A stretch of 43,615 bases of DNA, taken from NCBI GenBank assembly GCA_046758705.1, contig JBHIAT010000009.1, positions 1 through 43,615 on the forward strand, read 5' to 3'. This DNA is from Candidatus Bipolaricaulia bacterium. GTDB taxonomy: Bacteria; Bipolaricaulota; Bipolaricaulia; JBHIAT01. Positions 19,572 through 41,718 of the stretch are shown piece by piece (the first letter of the stretch is position 1; each line of letters opens with the position of its first letter). The notes under the pieces are model-generated. The model was not told the DNA's origin. It made no database searches and worked only from the letters and a program-made list of their open reading frames with translations. Position numbers and translations under genes: made by a program.

Positions 19572-20735
19572 TCACGACTTGGGGATCTGCTTTTTCGGAT
19601 CGATGAACGGCTTTTTGACCACCGTGGCCGTGGTTTCGCCAGCAGGCGTCTCCACCGTCAGTGCGGTGCCGAGATCGGTATGCTCGATGGACACCATGGC
19701 ATAGCCGATGTTCTTCTCCAATCGCGGCGAATAACAGGCAGAGGTCACCCGTCCTATGTTTGTGCCGTCCCGGAAGACCGGCCAGAAATCCTCCATCGAG
19801 CCATCGGTGTACGCTCCTAGGGGATCGCCGTGAATTTCCACGCCGACCAGCTTTTGCTTTACTCCTTCCGCTTGGATCCGCTTGAGCGCCTCTTTCCCGA
19901 TGAAGTCGGCCTCTTGGTCTTTCACCATCCAACCTAGCCCGATCTCAAAAGGGGTATTCTCCAGCGTCATGTCGGCACCGTAAGCGAGGATGCCACCCTC
20001 TATCCGACGGATGTGTGACGGTCCGATGACAGCGATATCGTAAGGTCGGCCGGTCTCCAGCACCCTATCCCACAGCTTGACAGCGTCACGGCTGGCGTTA
20101 CGGAGGTAGATTTCATAGCCCACCTCCCCCGTATAGCCGGTGCGGGATACGATGACATCCATATCATCCAATTTGGCCTCGAACATGAAATAGTAAGACA
20201 GATCCAGAACACGATCGCCAAACAGCTCCTGCATGACCTGCTTCGACTTTGGCCCCTGGATCTGGACCGGTCCGACGCCAGGCTCCTGAATGTTCACGGT
20301 TAAGCCCGAATTGTAGGCCAAGCCCTTGGTCCACAGCAGCACGTCGCTGTCGGCCACCGACAACCAGAAGTGATTCTCGCCCAGCCGCAGCAACACCGGG
20401 TCGTTGATGATGCCGCCGTCTTCGGCGGTGATGAGCACGTACATACATTGCCCGACCCGGCAGTTGGTTAGGTCGCGCGGCGTGAGCATGTTGGTGAAAG
20501 TGAAGGCATCCGGGCCGGTGATTTCGACTTGCCGCTCCACCCCCACATCCCAGAGCGTGACATCGTTGAGCAGCTTCCAGTATTCCTTGACGGGATCGTC
20601 GTAGTATCTGGGATGATACATGTGGTTGTAGACGCTGTAAGCCTTGACCCCATGGCGTCGCGAGGCATAAAAGTAAGGAGACTTGCGAATCCGAGTATAG
20701 AACAGAATTTCGGGTGCATTATCAGCTTTGGTCAT
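19572..20735 (-). CDS. GcvT-fold THF-dependent demethylase, DmdA-like (copy 1)
   Basis: RIRKSPYF, YSVYNHMYHP, TLWDVGVERQVEITGPDA, NDPVLLRL, SRTGYTGEVGYEIY; ATG 20735 with GGAGG. Confidence 0.85.
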   Translation of the reverse strand: MTKADNAPEILFYTRIRKSPYFYASRRHGVKAYSVYNHMYHPRYYDDPVKEYWKLLNDVTLWDVGVERQVEITGPDAFTFTNMLTPRDLTNCRVGQCMYVLITAEDGGIINDPVLLRLGENHFWLSVADSDVLLWTKGLAYNSGLTVNIQEPGVGPVQIQGPKSKQVMQELFGDRVLDLSYYFMFEAKLDDMDVIVSRTGYTGEVGYEIYLRNASRDAVKLWDRVLETGRPYDIAVIGPSHIRRIEGGILAYGADMTLENTPFEIGLGWMVKDQEADFIGKEALKRIQAEGVKQKLVGVEIHGDPLGAYTDGSMEDFWPVFRDGTNIGRVTSACYSPRLEKNIGYAMVSIEHTDLGTALTVETPAGETTATVVKKPFIDPKKQIPKS

Positions 20736-20745
20736 GGCAACCTCC

Positions 20746-21750
20746 TTAGACACTTGCCTGAATTTCTGGTCTGTTAACCCGCTCTTTCTCTTTCTTGATC
20801 TCTTCGATCAGCGCCGGGACGACCTCGTGCAAATCACCAACGACGGCGTAGTCGGCGCGCGAGAAGAACGGCGCCTCCCGGTCCTTGTTAATCACCAGGA
20901 TCCGCTTCGCCCCCTTACAGCCGACCATGTGCTGGATGGCTCCGCTGATCCCGCAGGCGATGTAGAGATCGGGGGCGATCTGAACGCCCGTTTGTCCGAT
21001 CTGATCGGAGTGAGGCCGCCAGCCGTTGTTGGTGGCCACGCGCGAGCCGCCTACGGCTCCGCCCAAAAGATCGGCCAACGCTTCCAGGAGTTCAAATCCT
21101 TCGGGGCCACCAACGCCGCGCCCGCCGCCGATCACGACCCGGGAATCCCTCAGCGAGATCCCTTCCTCTACTGACTCGACTCGGTCCGTGATCCTGACAC
21201 GGAAATCCTTGTCCTTTAGGGAAGGGATGAACGCTTCAACGGCAAGTTTCCCTTCGGCGGGCGCCTCCTCGGCGGGGACCGCATGCGGGGCGACGGTGAG
21301 CAGCTTCGGATCTCCTTTGAGGACGGCCTCTTCCAAGAGGCTGCCACCCCAGCGCAACCGCGTAACCCGGTAGGGGTCGTCCAGCTGGACCTCCGTGCAG
21401 TTGGCGGCCATGGGAAGATCGGTTCGAGCTGCGACGTGCGCCAACACCTCGTTGCCCCGATCGGTCCCTGCGGCCATTACAGCTTGCGGGTTCGCCACTT
21501 CGATGAGCTGAACGATGCTGTTTGCCCAGGCCTCCGGCGCGTAATCGTCCAGGCGATCGTGCCGGGCGAGGTGGACCGTGGATACGCCGTACACCTTCAG
21601 CCCTTCGGCCAATACGCGTGCATCTTCACCAATCAGGATGGCCTCGAGAGAGGTATTCAGCTCGCTCGCCAAGCCGCGCGCGAACGTGAGCATCTCCAAT
21701 GACGCCTCGTTCAGCGTCCCTCGATCGTGTTCGATGAGCCCGAGCAGCAT
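20746..21750 (-). CDS. etfA: Electron transfer flavoprotein alpha subunit
   Basis: GGGRG, VGGSRVA, QIGQTG, YIACGISGAIQHMVG, INKDREAPFF. Confidence 0.95.
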   Translation of the reverse strand: MLLGLIEHDRGTLNEASLEMLTFARGLASELNTSLEAILIGEDARVLAEGLKVYGVSTVHLARHDRLDDYAPEAWANSIVQLIEVANPQAVMAAGTDRGNEVLAHVAARTDLPMAANCTEVQLDDPYRVTRLRWGGSLLEEAVLKGDPKLLTVAPHAVPAEEAPAEGKLAVEAFIPSLKDKDFRVRITDRVESVEEGISLRDSRVVIGGGRGVGGPEGFELLEALADLLGGAVGGSRVATNNGWRPHSDQIGQTGVQIAPDLYIACGISGAIQHMVGCKGAKRILVINKDREAPFFSRADYAVVGDLHEVVPALIEEIKKEKERVNRPEIQASV

Positions 21751-21753
21751 GGT

Positions 21754-22539
21754 TCAAAGCACCTCCAGCTCTCTGAGGACCTCAACGATCTTCGGCGCCG
21801 CCTGTGGACCTTCTCCGAGGATCTTCACTTGGCCGCCCCGTTCCTCCGGCTCCTTGAGCCTCACCTTCTCAAGCTCAAAGCCGCTCCCGGTCCGCTGCGG
21901 CTCGATCTTGATCCGATCGATCGGCTTCTTCTTGGCCGTGATCATGCCGCGCAGCGAAGCGCGCCGGGGCAAATTGATTCCCTCCTTGACGGTAAAGACC
22001 GCCGGAAGCGAGACCTCGAAGATCTCCCAACCGCCCGAGATCTCTCGCTTCGCGATCGCGGTGCCCTCCCTGATCTCCAGCCCCTTGATCCCGGTCACGC
22101 ACGGCAGATCAAGTGCTTCCGCCACCCGGACGCCTACTTGATAGTCGCCCGTGTCCGCCGCTTCATTGCCGAAAAGCAGGAGATTGAAACCTGATCCTTC
22201 GTCTTGCTGAGCGCGGACCGCCTCGACGATCGCCCGAGCGGTCGCGCTCGGATCCCACTCGTTTCTGTCCGTCTCTAAAAGGACCCCGCGATCCATGCCC
22301 CTGGCGATGGAGTCGCGCAGTTGCTCGACCGCTTCCTCGGGGCCCAGGGTTAGCACGGTTGAGCGGCCGCCATGCTCCCCGATCAGCTGGACCGCTTCTT
22401 CCACCGCGCACTCTTCGTGCGGGCTGATGGTGAACCCCAGGTTGCGCGTCTCGATTGCCTGTTCATCTTCGGTCAGCTCAATCTTTGCGCCGGTGTCCGG
22501 CACCCGCTTGATACAGACGAGCATGTTCATGGTTGCCAC
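21754..22539 (-). CDS. etfB: Electron transfer flavoprotein beta subunit
   Basis: VCIKRVPDT, AVEEAVQL, LFGNEAADTGDYQVG, INLPRRASLRGM; start GTG 22539 or ATG 22530. Confidence 0.95.
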   Translation of the reverse strand: MATMNMLVCIKRVPDTGAKIELTEDEQAIETRNLGFTISPHEECAVEEAVQLIGEHGGRSTVLTLGPEEAVEQLRDSIARGMDRGVLLETDRNEWDPSATARAIVEAVRAQQDEGSGFNLLLFGNEAADTGDYQVGVRVAEALDLPCVTGIKGLEIREGTAIAKREISGGWEIFEVSLPAVFTVKEGINLPRRASLRGMITAKKKPIDRIKIEPQRTGSGFELEKVRLKEPEERGGQVKILGEGPQAAPKIVEVLRELEVL

Positions 22540-22554
22540 CTGACCCCATTTGTG

Positions 22555-25071
22555 TTAGCGTTTCATCCTTTCGTTATCCGGATCGAACAGGGGCGTGCTT
22601 CCGACGATCTCGACGGTGGCCGGATACCGCTCTGCAAAGTACTCTACAAACAGCTTTGTTCCGACCTGTGCGTATTCAGGGGGGAGGTAACCGAGCAGGA
22701 TGTGCTTGCCCACCGAAGGTCCGGCACCTGCACTCGTCACATACGATCGCCTGCCGTTGCGATCCACGATCGACTCGCCGTCCGGGTTCAAGATCGGCTC
22801 ATGACCAAGCATATAGCGAGGTTCGCCGGAGGCAGATCGGTGATTGTCCACCGTGAGCGTGCACAGCAGGGCGGCCGGTTGTTCGTCTCGCGCCCGTAAA
22901 TACGCGTCCCTGCCGATAAAATCCTGGCGTTTGACCTTGGGACGGGCAATGCCGGCCTCAACGGGGTTGTACTCCGTCTCCAGTTCGTGCCCGTAGAGGC
23001 GATATCCTTTCTCAAGGCGTGCCGTGGTGCCGTACACGCCGATGCCGGCGGGCACCACACCGAACGGTTGACCGGCTTCCCATAGGATATCCCACAGGCG
23101 CTGTCCCTGCTCCATGGGCGCATAGAGTTCCCAGCCGAGCTCGCCCACATAAGAGATGCGCAGCGCCCACACCCTTATCTCTCCAATGGTGATGTCCTTG
23201 GCGATTGCGAAAGGGAAGGCCTCATTGGAAACGTCGTCGTCCGTGACCGATCCCACGAGATCACGCGCAGACGGCCCCCAAACCCCGACCGTACACAAGG
23301 CTGAGGTCACATCGTGGAGCTGCACCGAACCGTCGTCGGGAAGGTGGTCTTGAAACCATTTCTTATCTACATTTCCCAAGCCGCCCCCAGTGATCACACG
23401 GAAATCGTTCTCGCCACGCCGCATGATGGTCAAATCGGCCTCCATGCCGCCATGCTCATTCAGAAAGGGCGTATAAACCGCCTTCCCGACGGGGACGTCC
23501 ATGTTTGCCACCGCCATGTGCTGCAGGTAGTCCAACGCCCCGGGGCCGGACACATCGAACTTTGCAAACGCACTGATATCGATCATGGCCACCCGATCGC
23601 GCATGGCCAAGTGCTCGGCATTGATGATGGGCGACCACCATCGCGCGTCCCACTCGGCGGGGCGGTCGAGAACCCGGTCACCGTATTCTTCCAGCAACTT
23701 CTGATTCGATTCATACCAATGCGGCCGTTCCCAGCCTGCGGTTTCAAAGAAGACCGCGCCGAGTTCCTGCTCACGTGCGTAGAACGGGCTGAGCCGCACA
23801 TCGCGGGCAGACTCCCATTGTTCGGCAGGATGGACAGCGTCGTATGTTTTGTTGTATCCTTCGGTGGCGCGCGCGTTGATATACGTCTCGGTCCGGGCGT
23901 ACTCGTAGAAGCGCGCGATGTCCACCTCATGGGGGTCCAGTTCTGGAGCGCCGTCCGTCATCCATTCAGTGATCAGCCGTCCGAACCCGGCGGCCTCTTT
24001 GATCCAGATGGCGGCTGCCGACCACAAACCGCGCACCTCAGGCGTCTCCCCAAGCACCGGCGCGCCGTCAGGAGCCAGCGAGATCAGCCCGTTGACAGCA
24101 TGCTGGATGACCACATTCTCATCGTCCAGGAGGTCGGGCAGAAGCTGCAATGCATGTTCCATCTGCTCTTCAAAATCTTCTTGCGTAAACGGAAGCTCGG
24201 TGGGAGAGAGCTTTGCTTCCTCTATCGAGGGGATATCGTCGGGGGCGTGTAGGATCGGCCGATGCGCATATGAGCCAATTTCCATAGCACTCCCGTTCTG
24301 ACGCTCGTACATCAAGACACTCATGTCTCGTATAATGGGGTACTCAATTTCCGACTTTGTACCGGCAAACTGCTCGATGGGTCCAACGCTGATCATCTGG
24401 TGCACGACGGGTACCAGCGGTATAAACGCGCCCGCCATGCGCGCGATACGGGGGCTCCATACGCCGCATGCGATCACCACGGTCTCGGTGCGTATCTCTC
24501 CTCGATCCGTGTTTACCCCGTGTACGCGGCCGTTCTCCACATCGATTCCTGTGACCTCAGTATTGGCATGGACGCTGAGGGCATCCAACTCTTGGGCCGC
24601 TTCCCGCATCAGGGTCCCGGCCTGCAGCGGATCGACCACACTGACGTCGGGGCTCCACATGGCACCCAGAATCCGCTCGATGTTGACGAACGGTAATAGC
24701 TTTCTGACCTCCCGGGGCGTAATCAGCTCCGCCTCTTCTCCCCAGGATTTGGCTGACGCGATCCGGCGTTTGAGTTCCTGCATGCGCGTTTCGGTGCGCG
24801 CCAGCTCCACTCCTCCGCTCTCTCTATAAACACCTAACGCTTTATACTGCTCCATGCTGTCCCGTGTGAGCTTGGTCATCAACTTGGAGTGATCGATGGG
24901 GAAGATAAAGTTCGAGGCATGTCCCGTGGAACCGCCCGGGTTGGGAAGCGGTCCTTTATCTAACAGCACAATCTCTTTCCAGCCCTTCTTGGCAAGATGG
25001 TAGACCATACAATTCCCCATGATGCCCGCACCGATCACCACGACGTTTGCCTGCTTAGGCAATGTGCTCAT
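22555..25071 (-). CDS. Dimethylglycine oxidase/dehydrogenase-like flavoprotein (FAD domain plus GcvT domain)
   Basis: IGAGIMG, GGSTGHAS (covalent-FAD His position), GWERP, RISYVGELGWELY, RLEKGYR; GGAGG RBS. Confidence 0.9.
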   Translation of the reverse strand: MSTLPKQANVVVIGAGIMGNCMVYHLAKKGWKEIVLLDKGPLPNPGGSTGHASNFIFPIDHSKLMTKLTRDSMEQYKALGVYRESGGVELARTETRMQELKRRIASAKSWGEEAELITPREVRKLLPFVNIERILGAMWSPDVSVVDPLQAGTLMREAAQELDALSVHANTEVTGIDVENGRVHGVNTDRGEIRTETVVIACGVWSPRIARMAGAFIPLVPVVHQMISVGPIEQFAGTKSEIEYPIIRDMSVLMYERQNGSAMEIGSYAHRPILHAPDDIPSIEEAKLSPTELPFTQEDFEEQMEHALQLLPDLLDDENVVIQHAVNGLISLAPDGAPVLGETPEVRGLWSAAAIWIKEAAGFGRLITEWMTDGAPELDPHEVDIARFYEYARTETYINARATEGYNKTYDAVHPAEQWESARDVRLSPFYAREQELGAVFFETAGWERPHWYESNQKLLEEYGDRVLDRPAEWDARWWSPIINAEHLAMRDRVAMIDISAFAKFDVSGPGALDYLQHMAVANMDVPVGKAVYTPFLNEHGGMEADLTIMRRGENDFRVITGGGLGNVDKKWFQDHLPDDGSVQLHDVTSALCTVGVWGPSARDLVGSVTDDDVSNEAFPFAIAKDITIGEIRVWALRISYVGELGWELYAPMEQGQRLWDILWEAGQPFGVVPAGIGVYGTTARLEKGYRLYGHELETEYNPVEAGIARPKVKRQDFIGRDAYLRARDEQPAALLCTLTVDNHRSASGEPRYMLGHEPILNPDGESIVDRNGRRSYVTSAGAGPSVGKHILLGYLPPEYAQVGTKLFVEYFAERYPATVEIVGSTPLFDPDNERMKR

Positions 25072-25151
25072 TGCACACCTCCCTCTGTCTTTGGGTTGAC
25101 AAGGACAACAACAGAATAACTATACTATAAAATAGGATCAAGGAGGAAGAC

Positions 25152-26216
25152 ATGATCGATTGTGATGTCCACAACGACTGGCCGTCGGCCGAAGTGTTGC
25201 TCCCGTACATGGATCCTAACTTTCGCGACTATCTGCAGCGCGGGGAATTGCCCGGTCCGGACGGCTCATTCCCGCATGCGCACCGGCCGTGGCTCCATCC
25301 CGAAGGTTTTATGCGCACTGACGTGAGCGACGACCGACACCCCGGCGCCGATTACGACGCCATGCGGGAAAAACTGCTGGACCGTTACGACATCGATTAT
25401 GCGATTCTGACCAGCGAGGAGGCAATTGAAGTCTCGACGTTGGGGAACCCGTATTATGCTTCCGCGTTGGCGCGCGCCCACAACGACTGGATGATCGATA
25501 CCTGGCTGACCTGGGATCCTCGCCTCAAAGGTTCGATCGTCGTGGCCCCACAAGATCCGACCGGGGCCGCTGCGGAGATCCGGCGTGTCGGTTCCCATCC
25601 CGATGTCGTCCAGGTCTTGATCTCCAGTGGATCGCAGCGACCGTACGGCGATCCGTTCTATCACCCGATCTGGGAGGCGGCGGCCGAAATGGAGCTGGTC
25701 ATCGGTGCTCACCTCGGCGGGCAAGGGGGCGTCAACTTCAATCCCATTGGATGCGGACCGACGACGTTCTTCTGGGAGACCCATGCGCTGTTGTGCGAGA
25801 CGGGCATGGCCCATGTGGCGAGCTTGATCGCGCACGGCGTGTTTGAAAAATGGCCTGATCTTACCTTTGTGCTGATCGAGTGTGGCGTCGCCTGGCTGCC
25901 AGGGATCCTCTGGCGTCTGGATGCCGATTACAAGGCATTACGCAAGGAGACCCCGTGGCTGAAGAAGCTGCCCAGCGAGTACGCGCGCGACCACATCCGC
26001 TTATCCACCCAGCCGCTTGAGCAACCTCAAAACGTTGAGCAGCTGTGGGCCGTGCTGGAAGCCATAGACGGAAAGCACACGCTGTTGTTTGCGTCGGATT
26101 ATCCGCACTGGGATTTCGACGACCCGACCCGGCTGCGACTCCCATCGGATTGGAAAGAGGACATCTTTGACACCAACGCACGGAAGGTGTATCGTCTGCC
26201 CTCGGCAAATAACTGA
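25152..26216 (+). CDS. Amidohydrolase_2-fold metalloprotein, possibly an amidohydrolase-related dinuclear oxygenase
   Basis: IDCDVH, YHPIWEAA, GAHLGG, GVFEKWP, LIECG, FASDYPHWDFDDP; TGATG coupling to a Rieske gene. Confidence 0.8.
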   Translation: MIDCDVHNDWPSAEVLLPYMDPNFRDYLQRGELPGPDGSFPHAHRPWLHPEGFMRTDVSDDRHPGADYDAMREKLLDRYDIDYAILTSEEAIEVSTLGNPYYASALARAHNDWMIDTWLTWDPRLKGSIVVAPQDPTGAAAEIRRVGSHPDVVQVLISSGSQRPYGDPFYHPIWEAAAEMELVIGAHLGGQGGVNFNPIGCGPTTFFWETHALLCETGMAHVASLIAHGVFEKWPDLTFVLIECGVAWLPGILWRLDADYKALRKETPWLKKLPSEYARDHIRLSTQPLEQPQNVEQLWAVLEAIDGKHTLLFASDYPHWDFDDPTRLRLPSDWKEDIFDTNARKVYRLPSANN

Positions 26217-26617
26217 TGAAAGTGAAAGATCAAGAAGATAAACGAGGTAAACGAAAGAGGCCCACCCGATCCTTTGTCTGCAAGGCGACCGATCTCGCGC
26301 CCGGTGAACGCCTCATTCTCGAGGTGAATGGGCGTAGTATCGGCATCTTTAATGTGGAAGGGCGTTTCTTCGCGCTTCTAAATTACTGTCCGCACACAGG
26401 TGGAGCGTTGTGCCAGGGACCGCTCACCGGCACAGCGTTACCTACAGCGGACTACGAGTACGTGTACGGCCGCGAAGGGCGCATTTTACGTTGTGCCTGG
26501 CATGGCTGGGAGTTCGATATCGAGACCGGTCAGGCGCTGGCTGACCCTAGAATCAAAGCGCGGACGTATCAGGTTGTCGTCGAAGACAGCGACGTATTTG
26601 TTGACTTCAAAAACTAG
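26216..26617 (+). CDS. Rieske [2Fe-2S] ferredoxin
   Basis: NYCPHTG...RCAWHGWEFD (CxH...CxxH). Confidence 0.93.
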   Translation: MKVKDQEDKRGKRKRPTRSFVCKATDLAPGERLILEVNGRSIGIFNVEGRFFALLNYCPHTGGALCQGPLTGTALPTADYEYVYGREGRILRCAWHGWEFDIETGQALADPRIKARTYQVVVEDSDVFVDFKN

Positions 26618-26655: not shown

Positions 26656-26671
26656 ATTGGTATATACCAAT
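26656..26671. promoter_or_regulatory. GntR(HutC/PhnF)-type operator
   Basis: Perfect 16-bp palindrome ATTGGTATATACCAAT just downstream of the -10; half-site GTATACCA at 26681-26688. Confidence 0.8.
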
Positions 26672-26707
26672 AATCCATTCGTATACCATCTTGGATACCG
26701 AACCGCT

Positions 26708-27454
26708 ATGGATCGACTGATAGACCGTCTCACCACGGCTGTACCGATGTACGTCCAAATTGCCGACAGTTTGCGCGATCGGATTGAGTCGGGCGAGCTG
26801 GCGCCGGGCGATCGTTTGCCTTCAGAGCGAGAATTGAGCGAGATGCTGGGCGTCAATCGAATGACCCTGCGGCGAGCACTCGGCATGCTCGAGACGCAAG
26901 GGTTGCTGGTCCGCCGGCAGGGGGATGGCACCTACGTCGCCGAACCCAAGATTGAGCGGGAGGCCGGTCAGCTAGTTCCCTTCACCAAAGGGATGAAACG
27001 CCGGGGGTACATACCGGGCGCCACGGTGATCATGCTCGAACAACGGCCTGTCGAGGCCTCTGTCGCCCGCCATCTGAAATTGCCCGTTTCGTCACCGGTC
27101 TACTCCATTCATCGGCTGCGATTCATCAATCACGAGCCGGTGATGTTGGAAAGGTTCATGATCCCGGTCCATCGCTTTCCTGGATTTGAGAGTCACGATT
27201 TGGAGAAGCGCTCGGCGTATGAAATCATGGAAACGGAGTATGGGGTTTCCATCAGCCAGGCACGGCAGAGCCTGGAGCCGGTCATCGCCACGGAATACGA
27301 GGCCGAATGGCTGGGTATTGAACCGGGCGCGCCGCTCATGTTGGAGCGGCGTCTGGCCTTTGACCAGGACGATCAGCCTGTTGAATATGGCAAGGACCTG
27401 TATCGTGGCGACCGCTTTCGATTCGTTACCGAAATGGCTCCATTAGAGTTATAG
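26708..27454 (+). CDS. GntR family, HutC subfamily (wHTH plus UTRA) transcriptional regulator
   Basis: PMYVQIA..LPSERELSEMLGVNRMTLRRAL..GDGTYV; UTRA ending YRGDRFRF. Confidence 0.95.
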   Translation: MDRLIDRLTTAVPMYVQIADSLRDRIESGELAPGDRLPSERELSEMLGVNRMTLRRALGMLETQGLLVRRQGDGTYVAEPKIEREAGQLVPFTKGMKRRGYIPGATVIMLEQRPVEASVARHLKLPVSSPVYSIHRLRFINHEPVMLERFMIPVHRFPGFESHDLEKRSAYEIMETEYGVSISQARQSLEPVIATEYEAEWLGIEPGAPLMLERRLAFDQDDQPVEYGKDLYRGDRFRFVTEMAPLEL

Positions 27455-27480: not shown

Positions 27481-28650
27481 ATGACCAAAGATTTCCGCCC
27501 CGCCACCGTTTACTTCTATCCCCGCATTCGCCTATCGCCCTACTTTGAAGCTACCCAACGCCACGATGCCAAAGCGTACAGCGCCTACAACCACATGTAC
27601 ATCCCCAGTTGGTACGGCGACACCGAGGAGGAGTACTGGGCGCTGGTCAACGACGTGGTGATTTGGGATGTGGCCGTGGAGCGGCAACTGGAAATCAAGG
27701 GGCCCGACGGCTTCGCTTTCACCAACATGCTCACTCCGCGGGACCTGACCCAGTGCGAAGTCGGTCAATGTATGTATGTCATGATCACTGATGAGAATGG
27801 CACCATTATCAACGACCCGGTGCTGTTGCGCTTGGATGAGAACCATTTCTGGTTGTCGCTGTCCGACAGCGATGTGCTACTGTGGGCCAAGGGTCTGGCC
27901 TACAACTCAGACTGGGACGTGGAGCTCGGTGAACCGGACGTGTCGCCGGTGCAGGTGCAGGGACCAAAGTCCCCGAAAGTCATGCAGGATCTCTTTGGCG
28001 ATCGTGTCCTCAAGCTGCCCTACTACTATCATTACGAGACCACGTTAGATGACATGGAAACGGTGGTGACGCGCACCGGCTACACCCAGGAACTTGGCTA
28101 CGAGATTTTCTTGAAGAACAGCAGCCGTGACGGCCTCAAGTTGTGGGACACGATGATGGAGGCCGGCAAACCGTATAACATCAGACCGGCCGGTCCTTCA
28201 GTCATTCGTCGCGTGGAGGCCGGCATCCGCGATTACGGTCGGGACATCTTTCGCCTGGAGAGTAACCCGTACGAGGTCGGGTTCGGCTGGACCGTTGATC
28301 TAGACCAAGAGGCCGACTTCATCGGTAAGGAGGCGCTCAGACGGATCAAGGCCGAGGGCGTGAAGCGCAAGTTGGTCGGGGTGGAGATTTACGGTGATCG
28401 AATCGAAGGCTCGAACGAAGATTACTGGCCGGTGCACAAGGACGGCCAACGCATCGGTCAGGTCACTTCCACCATTTACTCGCCGCGCTTGGAGAAAAAC
28501 ATCGGTTACGCCATGGTGCCCATCGAATACGCCGATCTAGGAACGGAGTTCAGTGTCGATGCGCGCGGCACCGAGAGGACGGCCAAGGTGGTCGAAGAAC
28601 CATTCATCAAGGGATCCGAAAAAGGAGATCCCAAAGCAGCCAACGGCTAG
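27481..28650 (+). CDS. GcvT-fold THF-dependent demethylase, DmdA-like (copy 2)
   Basis: RIRLSPYF, YSAYNHMYIP, IWDVAVERQLEIKGPDG, TRTGYTQELGYEIF; clear paralog of 19572-20735. Confidence 0.85.
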   Translation: MTKDFRPATVYFYPRIRLSPYFEATQRHDAKAYSAYNHMYIPSWYGDTEEEYWALVNDVVIWDVAVERQLEIKGPDGFAFTNMLTPRDLTQCEVGQCMYVMITDENGTIINDPVLLRLDENHFWLSLSDSDVLLWAKGLAYNSDWDVELGEPDVSPVQVQGPKSPKVMQDLFGDRVLKLPYYYHYETTLDDMETVVTRTGYTQELGYEIFLKNSSRDGLKLWDTMMEAGKPYNIRPAGPSVIRRVEAGIRDYGRDIFRLESNPYEVGFGWTVDLDQEADFIGKEALRRIKAEGVKRKLVGVEIYGDRIEGSNEDYWPVHKDGQRIGQVTSTIYSPRLEKNIGYAMVPIEYADLGTEFSVDARGTERTAKVVEEPFIKGSEKGDPKAANG

Positions 28651-32100: not shown

Positions 32101-32104
32101 ACCC

Positions 32105-34546: not shown

Positions 34547-34760
34547 CTTGGGAATATCCTTCTTCGGATCAACGAAGAGTCTTTTGACCACGGTCGCCTT
34601 GGCCTCGCCGTCCGACGTTTCCACAATCAATTCGGTGCCCAGATCGGCATGCTCGATGGGGACCATGGCATAGCCGATGGTCTTCTTCAGTCATGGCGAG
34701 CAGGCGAACGACCTCAGATCCCCGATGCGTGTCCCATCCCGACTCACCGGCCAGGACGGC
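34541..34760 (-). pseudogene. 3' remnant of a third DmdA-like gene
   Basis: Manual translation WPVSRDGTRIGDLRSFACSP*LKKTIGYAMVPIEHADLGTELIVETSDGEAKATVVKRLFVDPKKDIPKS* aligns to the C-terminus of 19572-20735; internal TGA. Confidence 0.85.
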
Positions 34761-34807: not shown

Positions 34808-34845
34808 TTTCCTCCCCATGGATAAATCCAGGGGACTTCTCGGCC
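34808..34845 (+). mobile_element. Solo IS200/IS605-type end hairpin (REP-like)
   Basis: TTTCCTCCCCATGGATAAATCCAGGGGACTTCTC resembles IS605 subterminal hairpins of the TTCCTCCCCATGGCTAAAGCCAGGGG type. Confidence 0.55.
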
Positions 34846-34910
34846 TAACCGTGTTGATAACCTCACCTAATGTGCGTTACACTGGTATTCGGAGGGAGAT
34901 GAGGTAGATA

Positions 34911-35970
34911 ATGGCCCTGCTGACGACCACCATCGGGGCTTACCCCAAACCCGATTATGTGCCGACACCGGACTGGTTCCGAGCGAGAAATCTGAACATT
35001 CCCCATCCTACCGAAGCCTACGATCAGTTCTTACACACCCAGGCAGGTGACGCCGAAGCGCTCGAAGCGCTCCTCGTCCGCGGGACCCACGAAGCGGTAC
35101 TCGACCAGGTGAACGCCGGCATCGACGTGCCCAGCGACGGGGAGATCCGGCGGGAAAACTACATTCACTATCATTGCCGCCATCTCGATGGCATCGATTT
35201 TTCGCACCTTACCCAAAAGACTATGCGAGCCGGGACGTGGGAGGCCGAAGTGCCAACGATTATCGGCCCGATCAAAGCCCGCGACCGATTTCTGCCCCAG
35301 GACTGGGAGATCGCCCAGTCGGTGACCGATCGCCCGATCAAGATCACCGTCCCCGGCCCCTTGACCCTCACCGACACCCTGGCCGACCTCTACTACGACG
35401 ATGAAAAGCGCCTGGGCGCCGACCTGGCCGATGCGCTCAACGTGGAGATACAGGCCCTCGCCGAGGCCGGATGTACCTGGTCAAGTGGATGAGCCGGTGT
35501 TCGCTCGCGAGCCGGAGAAAGCGCTGGCTTTCGGGATCGAAAACCTGGAGCGGTGCTTCCACGGTGTGCCGTCACACGTCGTGTGTGTCGTCCATATGTG
35601 CTGCGGCTACCCCGACAAGCTTGACAACGAAGATTATCCCAAGGCGGATCCGGCTGCCTACTTCATGTTGGCCGATGCGGTTGACGCATCGAGCATTCAG
35701 GCAGTTTCCATCGAGGACGCGTACCGGTACAACGATCTGACCCTATTGGAGCACTACACGAGGACTAAAGTCATCTTCGGCGTGATTGCCATCGCCAGGA
35801 CCAGGCTTGAGCCCGTGGAAGAGATCGCCGTCCGCCTCACTGAGGCACTGAACCACATTGATGCTGATCGGCTGATCGCTGCACCAGACTGTGGCCTGGG
35901 GATGCTTGATCATGCCACGGTGAGGGCCAAGCTGGCCAACATGGTGACCGCCGCCCGCGCTGTGGGCTGA
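34911..35970 (+). pseudogene. Cobalamin-independent methionine synthase II family (core/catalytic-domain-only MetE-like), frameshifted near 35481
   Basis: TTTIGAYPKP, SDGEIRRENY, KITVPGPLT, then frame change at TGG-T-CAA-GTG-GAT-GAG (W[I]QVDEP), HMCCG, SIE, APDCGLG. Confidence 0.85.
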
Positions 35971-35995
35971 GCGGGTCTCTACGCTTGCCAGATGT

Positions 35996-36025
35996 TTGAC
36001 AGCATTGTAAGTTCGGGTTTATAAT
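35996..36025 (+). promoter_or_regulatory. Consensus sigma70 promoter of the ABC operon
   Basis: TTGACA-18 nt-TATAAT. Confidence 0.75.
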
Positions 36026-36135
36026 TTAAACTTGCTTAAGGAGGTGATATCTTAGGAGAAGGTCTGGAGGTTTGAGACTTGAGACTATGGTACCTTGCAT
36101 AGCTCAAGTAGAAAAAAAGAAAAGGAGAGAACACC

Positions 36136-37686
36136 ATGTTATCCACCAAGAGGATCCAGATTATCTTGAGTCTACTGGTTGTCACCGCGATGACATTCGC
36201 GGCCTATGTACCGGCACTAGCGGAGGAACCGACGGGCACCCTGGTGAGAGCCATCTCAACCTTCCCCAACTCTCTGGACTTGCCGATAGCCGCGGAACGG
36301 CAGGCCAGCACCACTGCCTGGATGCTGTATGACACGCTCGTTTGGGTAAACGATGCGGGCAGAGTCGTGCCCGCGCTGGCCAAGAGCTGGGAGATCTCCG
36401 AGGACGGCGCGGAGTACACTTTCCACCTGCGCCAGGACGTCGTTTTCCACAACGGCGAGCGGTTCACCGCCGATTCGGTGGTCTTTTCCTGGGAACGCGG
36501 AAAAAACCCCGAGATGCAATGGTCCGAGAAATGGGCGCTGGCCGAGTCGGTGAAGGCGGTTGACACTTACACCGTCAAGGTCTCAACCGGGCAGCCCATG
36601 CCGCTCTTTTTGAGGATCATGGCCGACAACTGGGCGATCGTGCCCCCCAGATACATCGCTGCAGTGGGCGAGGAGGGCTTCGCCAAGCGCCCGATCGGCA
36701 CCGGGCCGTTCATGTTTGTCGAGTGGGTGAAGGGCGACCGCATCGTCATGGATGCCAATCCGAACTACTGGCGGGAAGGAGTGCCCAGGATCCAGAGGCT
36801 GATCTACCGGCCCATCCCAGAGTCCTCCACGCGCGTGGCCGCCATCCAGACGGGCGAGGTCGACATCGTCACCCGTCTGAGTGCAGAAGAGGCGACGAGT
36901 CTGCTGGGTGTGCCCGGCATCAAGATCATCAAGTATCCGCTTGATCGTGTCTGGTACGTCGCTTTCAACAACCTGACCAGCGGTGTAGGCCAGCCGACCG
37001 AGGACGCTCGCGTCCGACAGGCTATGAACTACGCCGTTGACGTTGCGGCGATTATTGACGCGCTGTTTGAGGGCTTCGCTCGGGAGTCCACCGGCTACGT
37101 CACACCGGCCAATTTGGGCTACGACGAAACCCTCATGCCATTTGGCTACGACCCGGAAAAGGCGCGCATGCTGCTGGCCGACGCCGGCTATCCGAATGGG
37201 TTCGCTATAGACTTCGCCTGCCCGATTGGCGCCTATACCCACTTTGAGGAGGTCTGTGAGGCCATCCAGGGCTACCTGGGCGAGGTGGGGATCGAGATCG
37301 ATCTCGAGTTCATGGAGTCCGGTCATTACTGGGACCTGGAAGCCAACAAACAGCTTCCGCCCCTGTTCGGCGACAGTTGGTCCGAATCCACCGGTGAGGC
37401 GTTCCCCCGCTTGCAAGGCGCGCTGGGGGGGTGGGACGCCAGCTTCTCCTCCTGGTCCGATCCGGAAATCGACCGGTTGCTCGATGCGATCTCGGTGACC
37501 GTGGATCAGGACGCCCGGGCGGCACTGTACGTCGAGCTACAGCGTTACATGCACGAAAACCCACCCTTCATCTACCTCTATGAACCGTTTACCTTCGAGG
37601 TCATCAGCACCCGCGTGCAGAACTACAACCCGCGTGCGGCTGAAAACTACTTCCTCTTTGATACCTTCGTCGTTGCAGAGAATTAG
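36136..37686 (+). CDS. ABC transporter substrate-binding protein, family 5 (Opp/Dpp/Nik type)
   Basis: Signal peptide (ALA-EE); PALAKSWEISEDG..YTFHLRQDVVFHNG, PIGTGPF, VRQAMNYAVD. Confidence 0.95.
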   Translation: MLSTKRIQIILSLLVVTAMTFAAYVPALAEEPTGTLVRAISTFPNSLDLPIAAERQASTTAWMLYDTLVWVNDAGRVVPALAKSWEISEDGAEYTFHLRQDVVFHNGERFTADSVVFSWERGKNPEMQWSEKWALAESVKAVDTYTVKVSTGQPMPLFLRIMADNWAIVPPRYIAAVGEEGFAKRPIGTGPFMFVEWVKGDRIVMDANPNYWREGVPRIQRLIYRPIPESSTRVAAIQTGEVDIVTRLSAEEATSLLGVPGIKIIKYPLDRVWYVAFNNLTSGVGQPTEDARVRQAMNYAVDVAAIIDALFEGFARESTGYVTPANLGYDETLMPFGYDPEKARMLLADAGYPNGFAIDFACPIGAYTHFEEVCEAIQGYLGEVGIEIDLEFMESGHYWDLEANKQLPPLFGDSWSESTGEAFPRLQGALGGWDASFSSWSDPEIDRLLDAISVTVDQDARAALYVELQRYMHENPPFIYLYEPFTFEVISTRVQNYNPRAAENYFLFDTFVVAEN

Positions 37687-37705
37687 GAGTAGAGAAGTAG
37701 TTAGG

Positions 37706-37745
37706 AAGGGGGAGGGCGCTCTAAGCGTCCTCCTCTTATTTTCTT
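37706..37745 (+). terminator. Hairpin after the SBP gene (partial terminator or 3' stabiliser)
   Basis: AAGGGGGAGGGCGCT-CTA-AGCGTCCTCCTCTT followed by a T-rich tract. Confidence 0.6.
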
Positions 37746-37794
37746 CTCTATTCTGGATTCTGGATCGTGAAGTACCTGATAGCTGGGGGTCCGA

Positions 37795-38715
37795 ATCCAA
37801 CGTTACCTGCTTTCACGTTTTGCCCAGTCGATCTTGGTTCTTTTCGGGGTCCTGATCCTGGTCTTCACCATGGTCCGTCTCACCGGCGACCCGGCGGCGT
37901 TGATGGTTTCACGCCAGGCCACTCCGGAGCAGATCGAAGCGTTTCGGGAGGCCATGGGCTTCAACCGTCCACTCCTCGTCCAGTTTGGGGATTTCATCAC
38001 TGGAGCGGTGAGGGGGGATTTCGGCAATTCGCTGCACTATCGAATACCGGCGATGCCCCTGATTCTGGAACGGCTGCCCGCGACGATCCAGTTGGCCAGC
38101 ATAGCACTGTTGATGGCGATGGTGATCGGCATCCCGTTAGGAGTGGTCGCCGGTTCCAATCCGGGCAGCATATGGGATTCGATTGCGCGGGGTCTGGGTC
38201 TGTTGGGCCAGAGCATCCCCAACTTCTGGCTCGCCCTACTGCTTATCACTTTCTTTGCAGTGAACCTGGGGTGGTTCCCGTCGTTTGGCCGGGACGAGCT
38301 GAAATCGGTGGTCTTGCCCGCGTTCGCGCTCAGCGTGTTTACCATGGGCCAGTTGGTCCGCTTGACACGCTCCGCCGTATTGGAAATCAGGGGGGAGGAC
38401 TACATTCGCACTGCCAACAGCAAAGGGTTGGCGGCCAGGAGGATCTACATCCGGCATGTGCTCAAGAATGCAGCCATCCCGTTGGTGAGCGTGCTGGGCG
38501 TCCAGTTCGGTTACCTGCTCAGCGGTTCCATCTATATCGAAACCATCTTTTCCTGGCCTGGCCTCGGCCGACTGCTGGCCGACTCGATCGGTGTGCGCGA
38601 TTTTCCACTGATACAGGCCATCGCCTTTTTCACCAGTGTGGTCGTCATCGCGTTGAGTTTGTTAACGGATGTTGCCTATGCTGTGATCGATCCACGCATC
38701 AGGTACGGGAGATAA
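37795..38715 (+). CDS. ABC permease, OppB/DppB-like (apparent ATC start)
   Basis: (I)QRYLLSRFAQSILVLFGV.., GDFGNSL, EDYIRTANSKGL, ETIFSWPGLG, DPRI. Confidence 0.9.
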   Translation: MQRYLLSRFAQSILVLFGVLILVFTMVRLTGDPAALMVSRQATPEQIEAFREAMGFNRPLLVQFGDFITGAVRGDFGNSLHYRIPAMPLILERLPATIQLASIALLMAMVIGIPLGVVAGSNPGSIWDSIARGLGLLGQSIPNFWLALLLITFFAVNLGWFPSFGRDELKSVVLPAFALSVFTMGQLVRLTRSAVLEIRGEDYIRTANSKGLAARRIYIRHVLKNAAIPLVSVLGVQFGYLLSGSIYIETIFSWPGLGRLLADSIGVRDFPLIQAIAFFTSVVVIALSLLTDVAYAVIDPRIRYGR

Positions 38716-38743
38716 GCCAGGAGTAAAGACAGGAGATAAACCC

Positions 38744-39670
38744 ATGGCTGAAGTCACAGATCCGCGCGATTCTGCATGGGAGGACATCGAAGAACGGGGT
38801 TTCCGATATCAGATGCGCTATGTGGGTCGGTTGCTTTTGCGCGATCGGTCCGGCATGCTGGGTCTGGCCCTGTTTCTGCTGGTGGTCATCGCAGCGGTCT
38901 TTGCCCCGTGGATCGCCCCACACGATCCGCTCAAACAGAGTTTACGCGTGGCCAAGCAGCCCCCCGCCTGGTCAGAAGGGGGCAGCTGGGAGTACCCGTT
39001 AGGGACCGATAATCTGGGTCGGGACCTGTGGAGTCGGATCATCTATGGCACGCGAGTCTCGTTGACCGTGGGCTTTTTCGGAGTTCTGATTGCCAGCAGC
39101 CTTGGCCTGGTCATAGGATTGGTCGCTGGTTATGCGGGCGGCCGAACCGACAGCATTATCATGGGCGGGGTCAATCTCGTGCTGGCGCTCCCTTATCTTC
39201 TGTTCGTCGTGTTTATCGCTGCAATTCTGGGACGGAGTCTGATCAACGTGATCCTGATTTTTGGCATCACCGATGCACCCGTCTTCGCGCGTGTGACGCG
39301 AGGCGAGGTGCTACACATGCGAGAATCCGGGTTCGTCGAATCGGCGAACAGCGTCGGCTTTCGCACAAGACATATCCTGTTCGATCACATCATGCCCAAT
39401 CTGATCGGCCCGTTGATCACCTTGGCGACCTTCGAGATGTCGGCCATGATCTTTTACGAAGCCGGGCTGGGCTTCCTCGGTCTGAGCGTGCCGCCCACGG
39501 TGCCCAGTTGGGGCAACATGCTGGCGAACGGTCGCAAATACCTGTCCATCTATCCCTGGATCGCCACCTTCCCCGGTCTGGCGATCGTATTCACCTCGCT
39601 GGGGATGAACTTGATGGGCGATTGGCTGCGCGATGTGCTTGACCCGCGTCTGCGACGATCCAGAAAGTGA
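38744..39670 (+). CDS. ABC permease, OppC/DppC-like
   Basis: LGTDNLGRD, EAGLGFLGL, PSWGNML, GDWLRDVLDPR. Confidence 0.95.
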   Translation: MAEVTDPRDSAWEDIEERGFRYQMRYVGRLLLRDRSGMLGLALFLLVVIAAVFAPWIAPHDPLKQSLRVAKQPPAWSEGGSWEYPLGTDNLGRDLWSRIIYGTRVSLTVGFFGVLIASSLGLVIGLVAGYAGGRTDSIIMGGVNLVLALPYLLFVVFIAAILGRSLINVILIFGITDAPVFARVTRGEVLHMRESGFVESANSVGFRTRHILFDHIMPNLIGPLITLATFEMSAMIFYEAGLGFLGLSVPPTVPSWGNMLANGRKYLSIYPWIATFPGLAIVFTSLGMNLMGDWLRDVLDPRLRRSRK

Positions 39671-39686
39671 TTGGAAAGTGACCGGA

Positions 39687-40700
39687 ATGCAGGTGCAACC
39701 CATTTTGCAGGTCAGAGACCTGATCACGCGCTTCGACACGCTGGACGGCGTTGTCCACGCAGTGAACGGGGTCAACTTCGACCTTGAAGAGAGCGAAACG
39801 CTGGCCATTGTGGGCGAAAGCGGGAGTGGCAAAAGCGTCACCGTGATGTCGTTGCTGGGTCTCATCCCTCAGCCGCCCGGTCAGATCGAGGAGGGTGAGG
39901 CGATCTTTTTCGACGGTTCTGCCGAGCGAGATCTGCTCCAACTGTCCCCGGCGGAAGTCCGTCAGGTTCGCGGCGGACAAATTGGCTTTATCTTCCAAGA
40001 TCCCTTGACTTCCCTGAACCCGGTGATGACGATCGGTCAGCAGATCGCCGAGTCCATCGTCGAGCATTTGGGGCTCAATCGTAGAGAAGCGCGCAAGCGC
40101 GCGGTCGAATCGCTTGAGCATGTGGGCATCCCCGGGGCTCAAGAGCGGTATAACAACTATCCGCACCAATTCTCTGGCGGGATGCGACAACGGGTGATGA
40201 TTGCCATCGCCATCGCTTGTACCCCGAAGATTGTGATCGCCGATGAGCCCACCACGGCCCTGGATGTCACCGTTCAGGCACAGATCGTCGACCTCATGTT
40301 ACGCCTGAGAGATGAACTTGGGGTGGCGGTGATTTGGATCACCCATGATTTGGGCGTCGTGGCCGGATTGGCCGATCGGGTCCTGGTGATGTACGGGGGC
40401 ACGGTCGTTGAACGCGCCCGCGTGGACGATCTGTATGAACGGCCCCAACATCCCTACACGCTGGGTTTGTTGGGCGCGCTGCCTCGTCTGGATGACACCG
40501 GGAAACGTCGACTGGTGAGCATCGAAGGCACGCCACCGGATCTATACGAGGAGCTGAGTCACTGCCCGTTCGCGACGCGCTGCCCCTACGCTTTTGAACG
40601 CTGTTGGCAGGAAGTTCCGCCGTTAATCTCGGTGGGAGAGCACCACGAAGCAGCCTGCTTCTACGACATCGATGCCGGGAGGTCCAGAGATGACGTCTGA
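39687..40700 (+). CDS. ABC ATP-binding protein, OppD/DppD-like
   Basis: [25 protein letters not shown]-terminal Cys cluster. Confidence 0.95.
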
Positions 40701-41718
40701 CGATTCCAAGGTCCTGGTCCGCGTCGAGAATTTAGAAAAGCACTTCCCGATCTTTCGGGGCGTGATCGTCAGTCGTAAGGTCGGTGCTGTCAAGGCGGTC
40801 GATGGTTTGTCATTTGAAATCAAGCAGGGGGAGACCCTGGGCCTGGTCGGTGAGAGCGGCTGTGGCAAATCGACCACCGGTCGGGCCATCCTGCAATTGC
40901 ATAAACCCACGGGAGGCCAGGTGTTCTTCGAGGATGTGGAGTTGACCACACTAGACTCCGAAGAGTTGCGCCAGTTGCGTCCGAAAATGCAGATGATCTT
41001 CCAGGACTCTTACGACTCTCTCAATCCGCGCCACTCGGTGGGCAAAATCATCGGCAAACCTATGGAGATCCATGATGTAGCAGATGGGAGTCAGATGAGA
41101 CAGCGGGTGGCAGAACTGCTTGAACTGGTGGGCCTCAACCCCGCACACTCCAAGTGGTTCCCCCACGAGTTCTCGGGGGGCCAGCGGCAGCGCATCAATA
41201 TCGCGCGTGCCCTAGCCCTCGATCCAGACTTTATCGTCTGTGACGAGCCGATCTCCGCCCTCGACGTCTCCATCCAAGCCCAGGTGGTCAATCTGCTCCA
41301 AGACCTCCAGAAGGAGTTCGGCTTAACCTACTTATTTATCGCCCACGACCTGAGCATGGTGCGCCACATCTCCAACCGGGTGGCGGTCATGTACCTGGGC
41401 AAGGTCATGGAACTGGCCGACCAGCACGATCTGTTTGAGGATCCACTCCATCCCTATACCCAGTCGCTGATGTCAGCCGTTCCATTGCCCGATCCCAAAG
41501 TCGAGAGGCAGCGCGAGCGGATTATTCTCAAAGGGGAGGTGCCCAGTCCGGCAACCCCCCCCAAGGCTTGCGTGTTCAATACCCGCTGCCCGCTAGTGCA
41601 GGAGGTATGCTTCCAAGTCGTGCCTGAGTATCGCCAAGTGCGACCCGGGCATTCTGTGGCGTGCCACCTCGTCGATTCTGGTCTGGGCAGCATTGGACAC
41701 TCCCCGTCGCTAAAGTGA
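40690..41718 (+). CDS. ABC ATP-binding protein, OppF/DppF-like
   Basis: [29 protein letters not shown]. Confidence 0.95.

Follow-up and report, generated by a model that had tools for sequence, protein, structure and literature searches.

Candidate folate- and flavin-dependent catabolism of N-methylated aminoethylphosphonates in a gene cluster of a Bipolaricaulia genome

Introduction

Methylated derivatives of 2-aminoethylphosphonate (AEP) are common in marine invertebrates, and two routes for their degradation have been published, namely, single-domain flavoenzymes for the monomethyl form and an oxygenase pair for the trimethyl form. Here, we describe a 43,615-nt stretch of DNA from a Candidatus Bipolaricaulia bacterium (contig JBHIAT010000009.1; "the window" hereafter means this whole stretch), in which the phosphonate genes PhnW, PhnX, and PbfA lie in one same-strand run with genes that resemble folate- and flavin-dependent demethylases. 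The run is discussed as a candidate for the catabolism of N-methylated AEP.

As described by Zangelmi et al. 2023 (PMC10590968), PbfB, PbfC, and PbfD are ancillary flavoenzymes of AEP-degradation clusters, which feed N-methyl-AEP into PhnW/PhnX or PhnWAY. According to that article, these enzymes consist of a single PF01266 domain, are at most about 31% identical to their characterized relatives, and are inactive on trimethyl-AEP; PbfD1 is also appreciably active on dimethyl-AEP, and PbfC and PbfD oxidize the ethyl side of the substrate, releasing phosphonoacetaldehyde directly. In contrast, the dimethylglycine dehydrogenase (DMGDH)-like proteins considered here have four domains in 815-838 aa, including a GcvT module that binds tetrahydrofolate (THF), and they are predicted to remove the methyl group to folate. 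The route proposed here would resemble TmpA/TmpB in handling quaternary trimethyl-AEP. However, TmpA and TmpB are two iron oxygenases that yield glycine betaine and phosphate, which is the only route for trimethyl-AEP according to PMC10590968. Among the 20 cluster proteins, there was no Pfam match to a 2-oxoglutarate dioxygenase or an HD domain; the search for TmpA/TmpB did not extend to the genome beyond the window.

Two further described systems are relevant to the demethylase-like genes. Among solved structures, DmdA of P. ubique (3TFH) comes closest to the two DmdA-like proteins of the window, which share its GcvT fold and THF site, and a methyl transfer from an onium center to THF would be expected of them by analogy; the donor is a sulfonium in DmdA, whereas a quaternary ammonium is proposed here. 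DMGDH, sarcosine dehydrogenase (SARDH), and the dimethylglycine oxidase (DMGO) of Arthrobacter carry out oxidative N-demethylation with capture of the one-carbon (C1) unit by THF. The DMGDH-like proteins of the window share their four domains, and an electron-transfer flavoprotein (ETF) is encoded beside one of them, DMGDH-like 1. However, the identity is about 40%, and the described enzymes stand in the context of the betaine pathway rather than of phosphonates. In the literature covered, outside of which the supplementary tables lay, AEP clusters were not found to be described with GcvT-domain or DMGDH-type enzymes, nor was a demethylation of methyl-AEP that depends on folate.

Gene content of the cluster

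As shown in Table 1, Pfam and NCBIfam scans of 20 open reading frames (ORFs) recovered at 19572-41718 all the cluster genes that had been named in the original prediction. The scans agree with its account of the run, in which PhnW, PhnX, and PbfA share one strand and are flanked by a DmdA-like and a DMGDH-like gene, with a HutC-type regulator in front. The divergent unit of DMGDH-like, EtfBA, and DmdA-like genes and the ABC importer, which is of the Opp type, are likewise present. PhnW, PhnX, and PbfA all pass the curated NCBIfam equivalog cut-offs. Along the run, the GntR gene is followed after 26 nt by DmdA-like 1, the subsequent spacings being 91, 2, and 27 nt, and DMGDH-like 2 then begins either in an overlap or after 4 nt. 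The database gene call of DMGDH-like 2 has 813 aa, so that its start would lie near 32105 and not at 32063.

Table 1. Features of the cluster and its downstream flank in the window.
Feature	Position	Strand	Basis or remark
DmdA-like 2, GcvT-fold folate-binding methyltransferase, last in divergent unit	19572-20753	-	GCV_T+GCV_T_C
EtfA, electron-transfer flavoprotein alpha	20746-21750	-	ETF+ETF_alpha
EtfB, electron-transfer flavoprotein beta	21754-22539	-	ETF domain
DMGDH-like 1, four-domain FAD/THF amine demethylase	22555-25071	-	DAO+FAO_M+GCV_T+GCV_T_C
Amidohydrolase-related dinuclear oxygenase (ARO), first in same-strand run	25152-26216	+	Amidohydro_2
Small Rieske [2Fe-2S] ferredoxin, 133 aa, presumed ARO partner	26216-26617	+	Rieske domain
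HutC/PhnR-type GntR regulator	26657-27454	+	GntR+UTRA domains; PhnR model 133 bits, below cut-off 297
DmdA-like 1, candidate methyl-onium:THF methyltransferase of phosphonate context	27481-28650	+	GCV_T+GCV_T_C
PhnW, 2-aminoethylphosphonate:pyruvate transaminase	28742-29860	+	NF010006, 511.9 bits vs cut-off 296
PhnX, phosphonoacetaldehyde hydrolase	29863-30693	+	TIGR01422, 327.2 bits vs cut-off 220
PbfA	30721-32100	+	NF049939, 721.2 bits vs cut-off 525
DMGDH-like 2, four-domain FAD/THF amine demethylase that may act as N-methyl-(hydroxy)AEP dehydrogenase	32063-34546	+	DAO+FAO_M+GCV_T+GCV_T_C
Relic of third DmdA-like gene: 70 C-terminal codons with in-frame stop	34544-34753	-	67% identical to DmdA-like 2 C-terminus
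Core MetE-like gene (Meth_synt_2 alone)	34911-35970	+	Frame broken near 35480 by 2-bp deficit
Family-5 (Opp/Dpp/Nik-type) substrate-binding protein	36136-37686	+	SBP_bac_5, 317 bits
ABC permease, OppB/DppB type	37834-38715	+	BPD_transp_1; start uncertain
ABC permease, OppC/DppC type	38744-39670	+	Pfam/NCBIfam scans
ABC ATPase, OppD type	39633-40700	+	Pfam/NCBIfam scans
ABC ATPase, OppF type	40672-41718	+	Pfam/NCBIfam scans
Type I restriction enzyme R subunit, C-terminal part	41978-43615	-	Cut off by contig end

As far as can be judged from sequence, the run of GntR, DmdA-like 1, PhnW, PhnX, PbfA, and DMGDH-like 2 may tentatively be assigned to a folate- and flavin-dependent catabolism of N-methylated (hydroxy)aminoethylphosphonates. 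DMGDH-like 2 was aligned over its full length to rat DMGDH (4PAB, 593 bits), and the His of its TTFH motif was aligned to the His of STWH in the rat enzyme, which may be the site of covalent FAD attachment. DMGDH-like 1, which is 38% identical to DMGDH-like 2, has its best PDB match in 1PJ5 (595 bits, full length) and belongs to a subfamily near the Arthrobacter DMGO. The presence of a THF-binding domain in the flavoenzyme points to an N-methyl group as the site of attack, and the DMGDH-like enzyme beside the phn genes probably acts on N-methyl aminophosphonates. In the genome of the window, both FAO_M-bearing (DMGDH-type) genes and 4 of the 11 GCV_T matches fall in the cluster, which indicates that the clustering exceeds chance.

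Conservation of the linkage between demethylase-like and phosphonate genes

The demethylase-phosphonate linkage on which the original prediction was built recurs beyond the window in a second genome (G041), in two metagenome contigs (L084 and L085), in alphaproteobacterial PbfA loci, and on plasmids of Hyphomicrobiales. The cluster of G041, at locus L048, has a single-strand order of DmdA-like 1 (82%), DMGDH-like 2 (70%), a YitT membrane protein, PbfA (73%, 704 bits), an unknown 156-aa ORF, an MTHFR-like gene, the GntR orthologue (66%), a second DMGDH-like gene (65%), a second DmdA-like gene (61%), and MetV-like and MetF genes, which as a pair represent the second MTHFR-like gene of the cluster. 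This cluster holds both FAO_M genes of G041 and four of its seven GCV_T matches. On L084 and L085, the succession of GntR, DmdA-like 1, and DMGDH-like 2 is found again, with PbfA then following in L085. In all three loci (L048, L084, and L085), DmdA-like 1 is directly followed by an orthologue of DMGDH-like 2 (70-73%), and wherever the contig continues (2/2), the YitT membrane protein and a 73% identical PbfA come next.

Among 401 sampled genomes of Alphaproteobacteria, the class of genome G042, PbfA was found in 22 genomes at 23 loci. In three of the 23 (in G713, G586, and G904), a gene for a four-domain DMGDH-like protein of 815-818 aa adjoins pbfA in the same orientation, the arrangement differing between the three loci, and these genomes have only 4, 6, and 5 DMGDH-type genes. 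The three proteins and one further G904 paralogue form one clade with a support of 100 in a quick tree (SH-aLRT support). One further locus (L194) has a single-domain DAO gene.

Homologues of the G904 DMGDH-like protein occur on 187 plasmid records, and seven plasmids, one per genus, were chosen from the top matches and from across their spread. In the group with 66-69% identity, phnW/phnA/phnY and/or AEP-transporter genes lie within 9 kb in five of the five genera, all of which belong to Hyphomicrobiales (Sinorhizobium meliloti pSymB, Phyllobacterium, Shinella sp. WSC3-e, Aminobacter, and Ensifer), and a DeoR regulator stands beside the DMGDH-like gene in each of them. On S. meliloti pSymB (CP140934.1, L209 1-20442), the 825-aa DMGDH-like gene lies between a tauABC/xsc/pta taurine-sulfoacetaldehyde cluster and phnW-phnA-phnY.

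In the group with about 50% identity, phn linkage was seen in neither of the two plasmids, and a choline/ethanolamine-kinase-like gene precedes the flavoenzyme; these are the plasmids of Shinella zoogloeoides (L214, 7090-10439) and Salipiger abyssi (L215, 2960-14059), the latter of which also holds a betaine-type ABC importer, EtfBA, FolD, and PurU. A kinase-like gene of this type is also found beside PhnW/PbfA in L179 (7203-8081). This arrangement suggests that the 50% subfamily demethylates phosphorylated N-methyl-ethanolamines. By extension, the demethylases of the window might act on phosphocholine or N-methyl-phosphoethanolamine, with a PbfA-like lyase taking ammonia and phosphate off phosphoethanolamine. 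The kinase-like neighbors would be in line with this, as would the kinship of PbfA to ethanolamine-phosphate phospho-lyase noted in PMC8154272, where PbfA is also reported to be strictly specific. However, the lyase of the window scores above the cut-off of the PbfA equivalog model (721 bits vs 525), and the phosphonate-specific PhnW and PhnX lie between the demethylase genes, so that an assignment to phosphate esters appears extremely improbable.

The regulator provides a further common element of the clusters. Regulators of the HutC subfamily have palindromic operators of the GT-n-TA-n-AC type, and the perfect palindrome TTGGTATATACCAA at 26657-26670, which extends across the listed GntR start codon, is the sole such site in the window. 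A single site with up to two mismatches is common by chance (at least one in 30 of 100 shuffles), and the argument therefore rests on the position of the palindrome and on two sites in G041, where copies with two mismatches lie directly upstream of GntR and of DmdA-like 1; at least two matches occurred in 3 of 200 shuffles. GntR probably represses the run at the palindrome of the window.

DmdA-like proteins and the divergent unit

DmdA-like 1 and DmdA-like 2 are 64% identical to each other, and with 367.5 and 377.9 bits, respectively, both fall below the cut-off of 410 of the DmdA model NF009133, which none of the nine matches in the genome passes. The best PDB match of DmdA-like 1 is nevertheless P. 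ubique DmdA (3TFH), with 281 bits versus 170 for the best GcvT. In the HMMER alignment, the Trp of the SGWS motif of 3TFH is aligned to Tyr201 of DmdA-like 1; this Trp corresponds to W171 with a numbering offset of 26, as obtained from the E and Y residues that align at the folate site. W171 is a key residue of the interaction specific for dimethylsulfoniopropionate, according to PMC7487153. On two of the features tested, the score cut-off and Trp171, DmdA-like 1 thus falls outside DmdA proper. Since the SAR11 genome analyses (PMC3160333), DmdA-like aminomethyltransferases have carried the annotation "unknown substrate". The clade of DmdA-like 1 is narrow, with 29 protein clusters at 77-82% identity followed by a fall to 67%, and eight conserved positions, K98M and L250R among them, set it apart from the generic family, which is a lead only.

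The surroundings of DmdA-like genes were compared in 160 loci, 80 on genome contigs scanned by alignment of DmdA-like proteins and 80 on metagenome contigs scanned with DmdA-like 1 alone, by tblastn with the window proteins. DmdA-like 2 was the better match (56-73%) in 77 of the 80 genome loci and 76 of the 80 metagenome loci, which come from Actinomycetota, Gemmatimonadota, archaea, and others. Orthologues of DmdA-like 1 were present in just five loci of the 160 (L003, L048, L083, L084, and L085). MTHFR-like genes were found in 66 loci, FTHFS in 17, choline-dehydrogenase-like GMC genes in 5, and PbfA with more than 50% identity in 2, and PhnW or PhnX in none of the 160. DMGDH-type genes stand beside the DmdA-like gene in 33 loci; an alternative count of 46 was set aside as inflated, because the DmdA-like gene itself may match the C-terminal half of the query.

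These neighborhoods reveal a generic module of a DmdA-like and an MTHFR-like gene, often with FTHFS, DMGDH-like, and EtfBA genes and sometimes with a choline-dehydrogenase-like gene, examples of which lie in L076 (9560-18015) and L063 (1818-12943). In L063, L072, L076, L104, and L133, orthologues of DMGDH-like 1 (63-66%) occur with Etf genes and genes of the DmdA-like 2 type; EtfA orthologues (49-58%) adjoin them in L063, L072, and L076, and EtfB orthologues also in L104 and L133. DMGDH-like 1 clusters with the Actinomycetota orthologues of this module with a support of 98 in the quick tree. The frequent MTHFR-like partner fits a methyl transfer that forms methyl-THF, and the module is a candidate for folate-dependent glycine betaine demethylation; no publication on it was found. 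The divergent unit of the window is thus a member of this widespread module, for which betaine-type catabolism is the simplest reading.

The original prediction had placed all four demethylases in one pathway. This is unlikely because the divergent unit is generic, PhnW and PhnX are absent from all 160 loci compared, and the operator-like palindrome of GntR is absent from the divergent promoter region of the window. It is correspondingly doubtful that DMGDH-like 1, EtfBA, and DmdA-like 2 act on the same substrates as the run; the unit could serve glycine betaine instead and contribute no more than its ETF.

The same counts bear on a broader alternative, in which all the demethylases degrade ordinary methylamines, such as glycine betaine, dimethylglycine, sarcosine, or other osmolytes, and stand beside the phosphonate genes only as parts of a nutrient-scavenging island. 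The generic character of the divergent unit, whose neighbors elsewhere are MTHFR-like, FTHFS, and choline-dehydrogenase-like genes, accords with such a juxtaposition, as do the lack of PhnW and PhnX in the 160 loci, the large continuous family of DMGDH-like 2, and the majority of PbfA loci that have no demethylase genes. It is harder to reconcile with the interleaving of the genes within one operon, in two orders in two genomes, and with the position of all the DMGDH-type genes of both the window genome and G041 at PbfA. The two clusters also have GntR and the palindromes in common, and adjacency to phn genes recurs in a second phylum in three types of cluster. We consider a mere juxtaposition to be unlikely.

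Several observations nevertheless weigh against the assignment of the run to methylated aminophosphonates. The family of DMGDH-like 2 is very large and spans identities of 63-75% without a gap, so that its 70% identity to the G041 copy is no proof of the same specificity, and the phn-linked DMGDH-like proteins of the Chloroflexota type and of Alphaproteobacteria form no joint clade in the quick tree. PbfA and PhnX occur without demethylases in G535 and G571, 19 of the 23 alphaproteobacterial PbfA loci are also without demethylases, and G041 has no PhnX above the cut-off. The DmdA-like 1 orthologues on the short contigs L003 and L083 have other neighbors, namely, MoaA and GFA with a nitroreductase, and no phosphonate genes. 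Since the S. meliloti DMGDH-like gene abuts the taurine cluster, N-methyltaurine is an alternative substrate there, and the enzyme could serve N-methyltaurine, N-methyl-AEP, or both. Finally, we know of no GcvT-family enzyme that takes a methyl group from a quaternary ammonium.

Proposed pathway

In the proposed catabolism, the substrates would be trimethyl-, dimethyl-, or monomethyl-AEP and/or the corresponding (R)-1-hydroxy forms. An imported quaternary compound would give one methyl group to THF by an SN2 transfer of the DmdA type on DmdA-like 1, forming 5-methyl-THF. One or both DMGDH-like enzymes would then oxidize the N-methyl carbon of the tertiary and secondary amines, with the C1 unit passing to 5,10-methylene-THF and the electrons to ETF. 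The last two steps correspond to the known activities of their families: AEP through PhnW and (R)-1-hydroxy-AEP (HAEP) through PbfA would be converted into phosphonoacetaldehyde, which PhnX would cleave into acetaldehyde and phosphate. According to PMC8154272, PbfA requires a primary amine and is strict for (R)-HAEP; full demethylation must therefore precede the PbfA step.

Of the two demethylation steps, that of the flavoenzyme has the better support: the case for a phosphonate-linked DMGDH-type demethylase is strong and that for an onium step of the DmdA-like protein moderate, whereas the case for the involvement of the divergent unit and for O2 independence is weak. That DmdA-like 1 demethylates the quaternary form is possible. 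The series from trimethyl- through dimethyl- and monomethyl-AEP to AEP that had originally been proposed is partly supported, insofar as the phosphonate linkage is conserved and MTHFR-like partners are found. However, PbfA, and not PhnW/PhnX, is the conserved partner in clusters of the Chloroflexota type, so that methylated 1-hydroxy-AEP is no less likely to be a substrate than methylated AEP.

The two demethylation steps can also be separated. In such a partial pathway, only the flavoenzyme would act on phosphonates, converting monomethyl- and perhaps dimethyl-(H)AEP into the primary amine, and the DmdA-like proteins would serve another onium compound, for example, glycine betaine. This would agree with the alphaproteobacterial phn clusters, which have DMGDH-like genes and no DmdA-like gene (0/23 PbfA loci and 0/5 plasmid loci), with the apparent betaine linkage of the wider DmdA-like family, and with the status of monomethyl-AEP as the common natural derivative in PMC12366243. 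On the other hand, the DmdA-like 1 clade is narrow and separate and carries its own changes K98M and L250R. In the window, L084, and L085, moreover, DmdA-like 1 is the first structural gene behind the regulator, and in G041 the cluster starts with it. A restriction of the pathway to the flavoenzyme step is quite unlikely in our view.

A more far-reaching version of the proposed catabolism treats the MTHFR-associated DmdA-like proteins as quaternary-ammonium:THF N-methyltransferases that are independent of corrinoid, homocysteine, and O2, with the widespread clade acting on glycine betaine and the DmdA-like 1 clade on trimethyl-(1-hydroxy)-AEP. Combined with "phosphono-sarcosine" dehydrogenases of the DMGDH type, they would make up a complete pathway of folate-linked demethylation that delivers AEP/HAEP to PhnW, PbfA, and PhnX. 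In this full extent, the proposal is speculative and somewhat doubtful.

The fate of phosphonoacetaldehyde may differ in G041, whose PhnW (508 bits) is encoded at a separate locus, L173 (G041:C3). There, at 7120-13067, PhnW is accompanied by two citryl-CoA-lyase-like genes and a SauS-like acylating aldehyde dehydrogenase (474 bits, cut-off 600), and a CoA-dependent fate outside the routes familiar to us may be at work. No PhnY above the cut-off was found in the window genome, G041, or G042. L173 also contains PbfA-like and MetE-like relics at 6989-7087 and 14366-14452; together with the DmdA-like relic of the window, they indicate that the clusters have been rearranged repeatedly.

Oxygenase pair at the head of the run

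The original prediction described the pathway as potentially O2-independent, and it had overlooked an O2-dependent oxygenase pair, the ARO and a Rieske protein, in the same run. The ARO has both signature motifs, DVH (D-x-H) and DYPHWD (D-x-P-H-x-D); in PMC13154177, an N-terminal D-x-H motif and a C-terminal D-x-P-H-x-[D/E] motif define amidohydrolase-related dinuclear oxygenases. Its PDB matches are 8SM7 (297 bits), SfbO (8SM6, 260 bits), and AibH (6M1W, 188 bits). The adjacent small Rieske protein has C-P-H and C-A-W-H motifs, and its gene overlaps the ARO stop by 1 nt, in likeness to SfbO/AibH2-type systems. In an O2-dependent reaction, SfbO and its Rieske partner N-dealkylate 2-aminoethylsulfonate amines; the spectrum of the SfbO cofactor is perturbed by AEP (PMC10811679).

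An oxygenase route can thus be envisaged, in which the pair would hydroxylate the carbon beside the N of N-alkylated AEP in the manner of SfbO and release phosphonoacetaldehyde and an amine with consumption of O2. Besides the motifs, the close PDB relatives, and the activities of SfbO, the location of the pair at the head of the run, 39 nt ahead of the regulator gene, speaks for such a role. However, the two anion-binding arginines by which SfbO holds the sulfonate, R232 and R235, are aligned to His211 and Leu214 of the ARO, the pair is not found in G041, and the closest orthologues of the ARO (60-67%; 3 of 401 genomes) lack phn and demethylase neighbors in all three loci and belong to a different conserved module. 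The pairing with the Rieske protein is kept in two of these three loci. An oxygenase route is accordingly very improbable, and the ARO, which was considered as a pathway member, is unsupported in that role by the three orthologue loci. In L206 and L207, the module of the orthologues consists of an enolase-superfamily gene, a 3-hydroxyisobutyrate-dehydrogenase-like gene, ARO, Rieske, and two metallo-beta-lactamase genes.

MetE-like gene, ABC importer, and genomic setting

The core MetE-like gene is present downstream of the run as had been predicted; the split of its reading frame by a 2-bp deficit was overlooked at that time, as was the DmdA-like relic at 34544-34753. The deficit (35475-35485) is identical in Logan contigs of three runs (X1-X3), and a relative with about 94% identity in a fourth run (X4) carries two extra bases at this site. 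It therefore looks like a recent strain-level inactivation and not an assembly slip. The intact orthologue of 350 aa (74-76% identical) that served as the reference for the deficit is found in G041, where it is divergent from PhnW. Distant family-5 transport systems, with components 26-41% identical, also flank the cluster on L085, the PhnW of G041 (L173), and L178. Since the PhnW of G041 stands beside both an intact MetE-like gene and an Opp-type transporter, both components are phosphonate-linked in both genomes. In the importer of the window, the conserved N-terminus of the first permease reaches upstream (37783-37834) without an ATG, GTG, or TTG, which implies that the start codon is unusual or that the gene is truncated. 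A frameshift was also considered here; the extra A of the X4 relative at 37737 lies upstream of this conserved N-terminus.

The window is one entire contig of a 3.7-Mb genome of 319 contigs, with 93.9% completeness and 4.7% contamination, and Logan contigs that contain the stretch come from four runs of a single study labeled hydrothermal vent metagenome. The region before 19572 consists of housekeeping genes (aromatic amino-acid synthesis and a sigma factor) and the downstream flank of a fragment of a restriction R subunit, so that the boundaries 19572-41718 hold. In the set of 184 genomes of the phylum of the window, PbfA occurs in the window genome only, and DmdA-like 1 has no match at E<=1e-60 in 40 other genomes of the same class. 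The listed relatives of the window genome share only its class and have genomes of 1.1-2.3 Mb, and the closest relatives of the cluster proteins are in metagenome-assembled genomes named Chloroflexi/Anaerolineae. Either the whole cluster was laterally acquired, or the binning of the contig deserves a check.

Implications

If the proposed catabolism is true, it would be a third route for methylated AEP, which would yield C1 units and reducing power; in the complete folate-linked version, three C1 units would be harvested per molecule. It would also provide the first substrate for the orphan DMGDH-like paralogues, a very large family, one homologue of which adjoins the characterized phnWAY genes of Sinorhizobium meliloti, and would assign to the DmdA-like aminomethyltransferases a function that can be tested.

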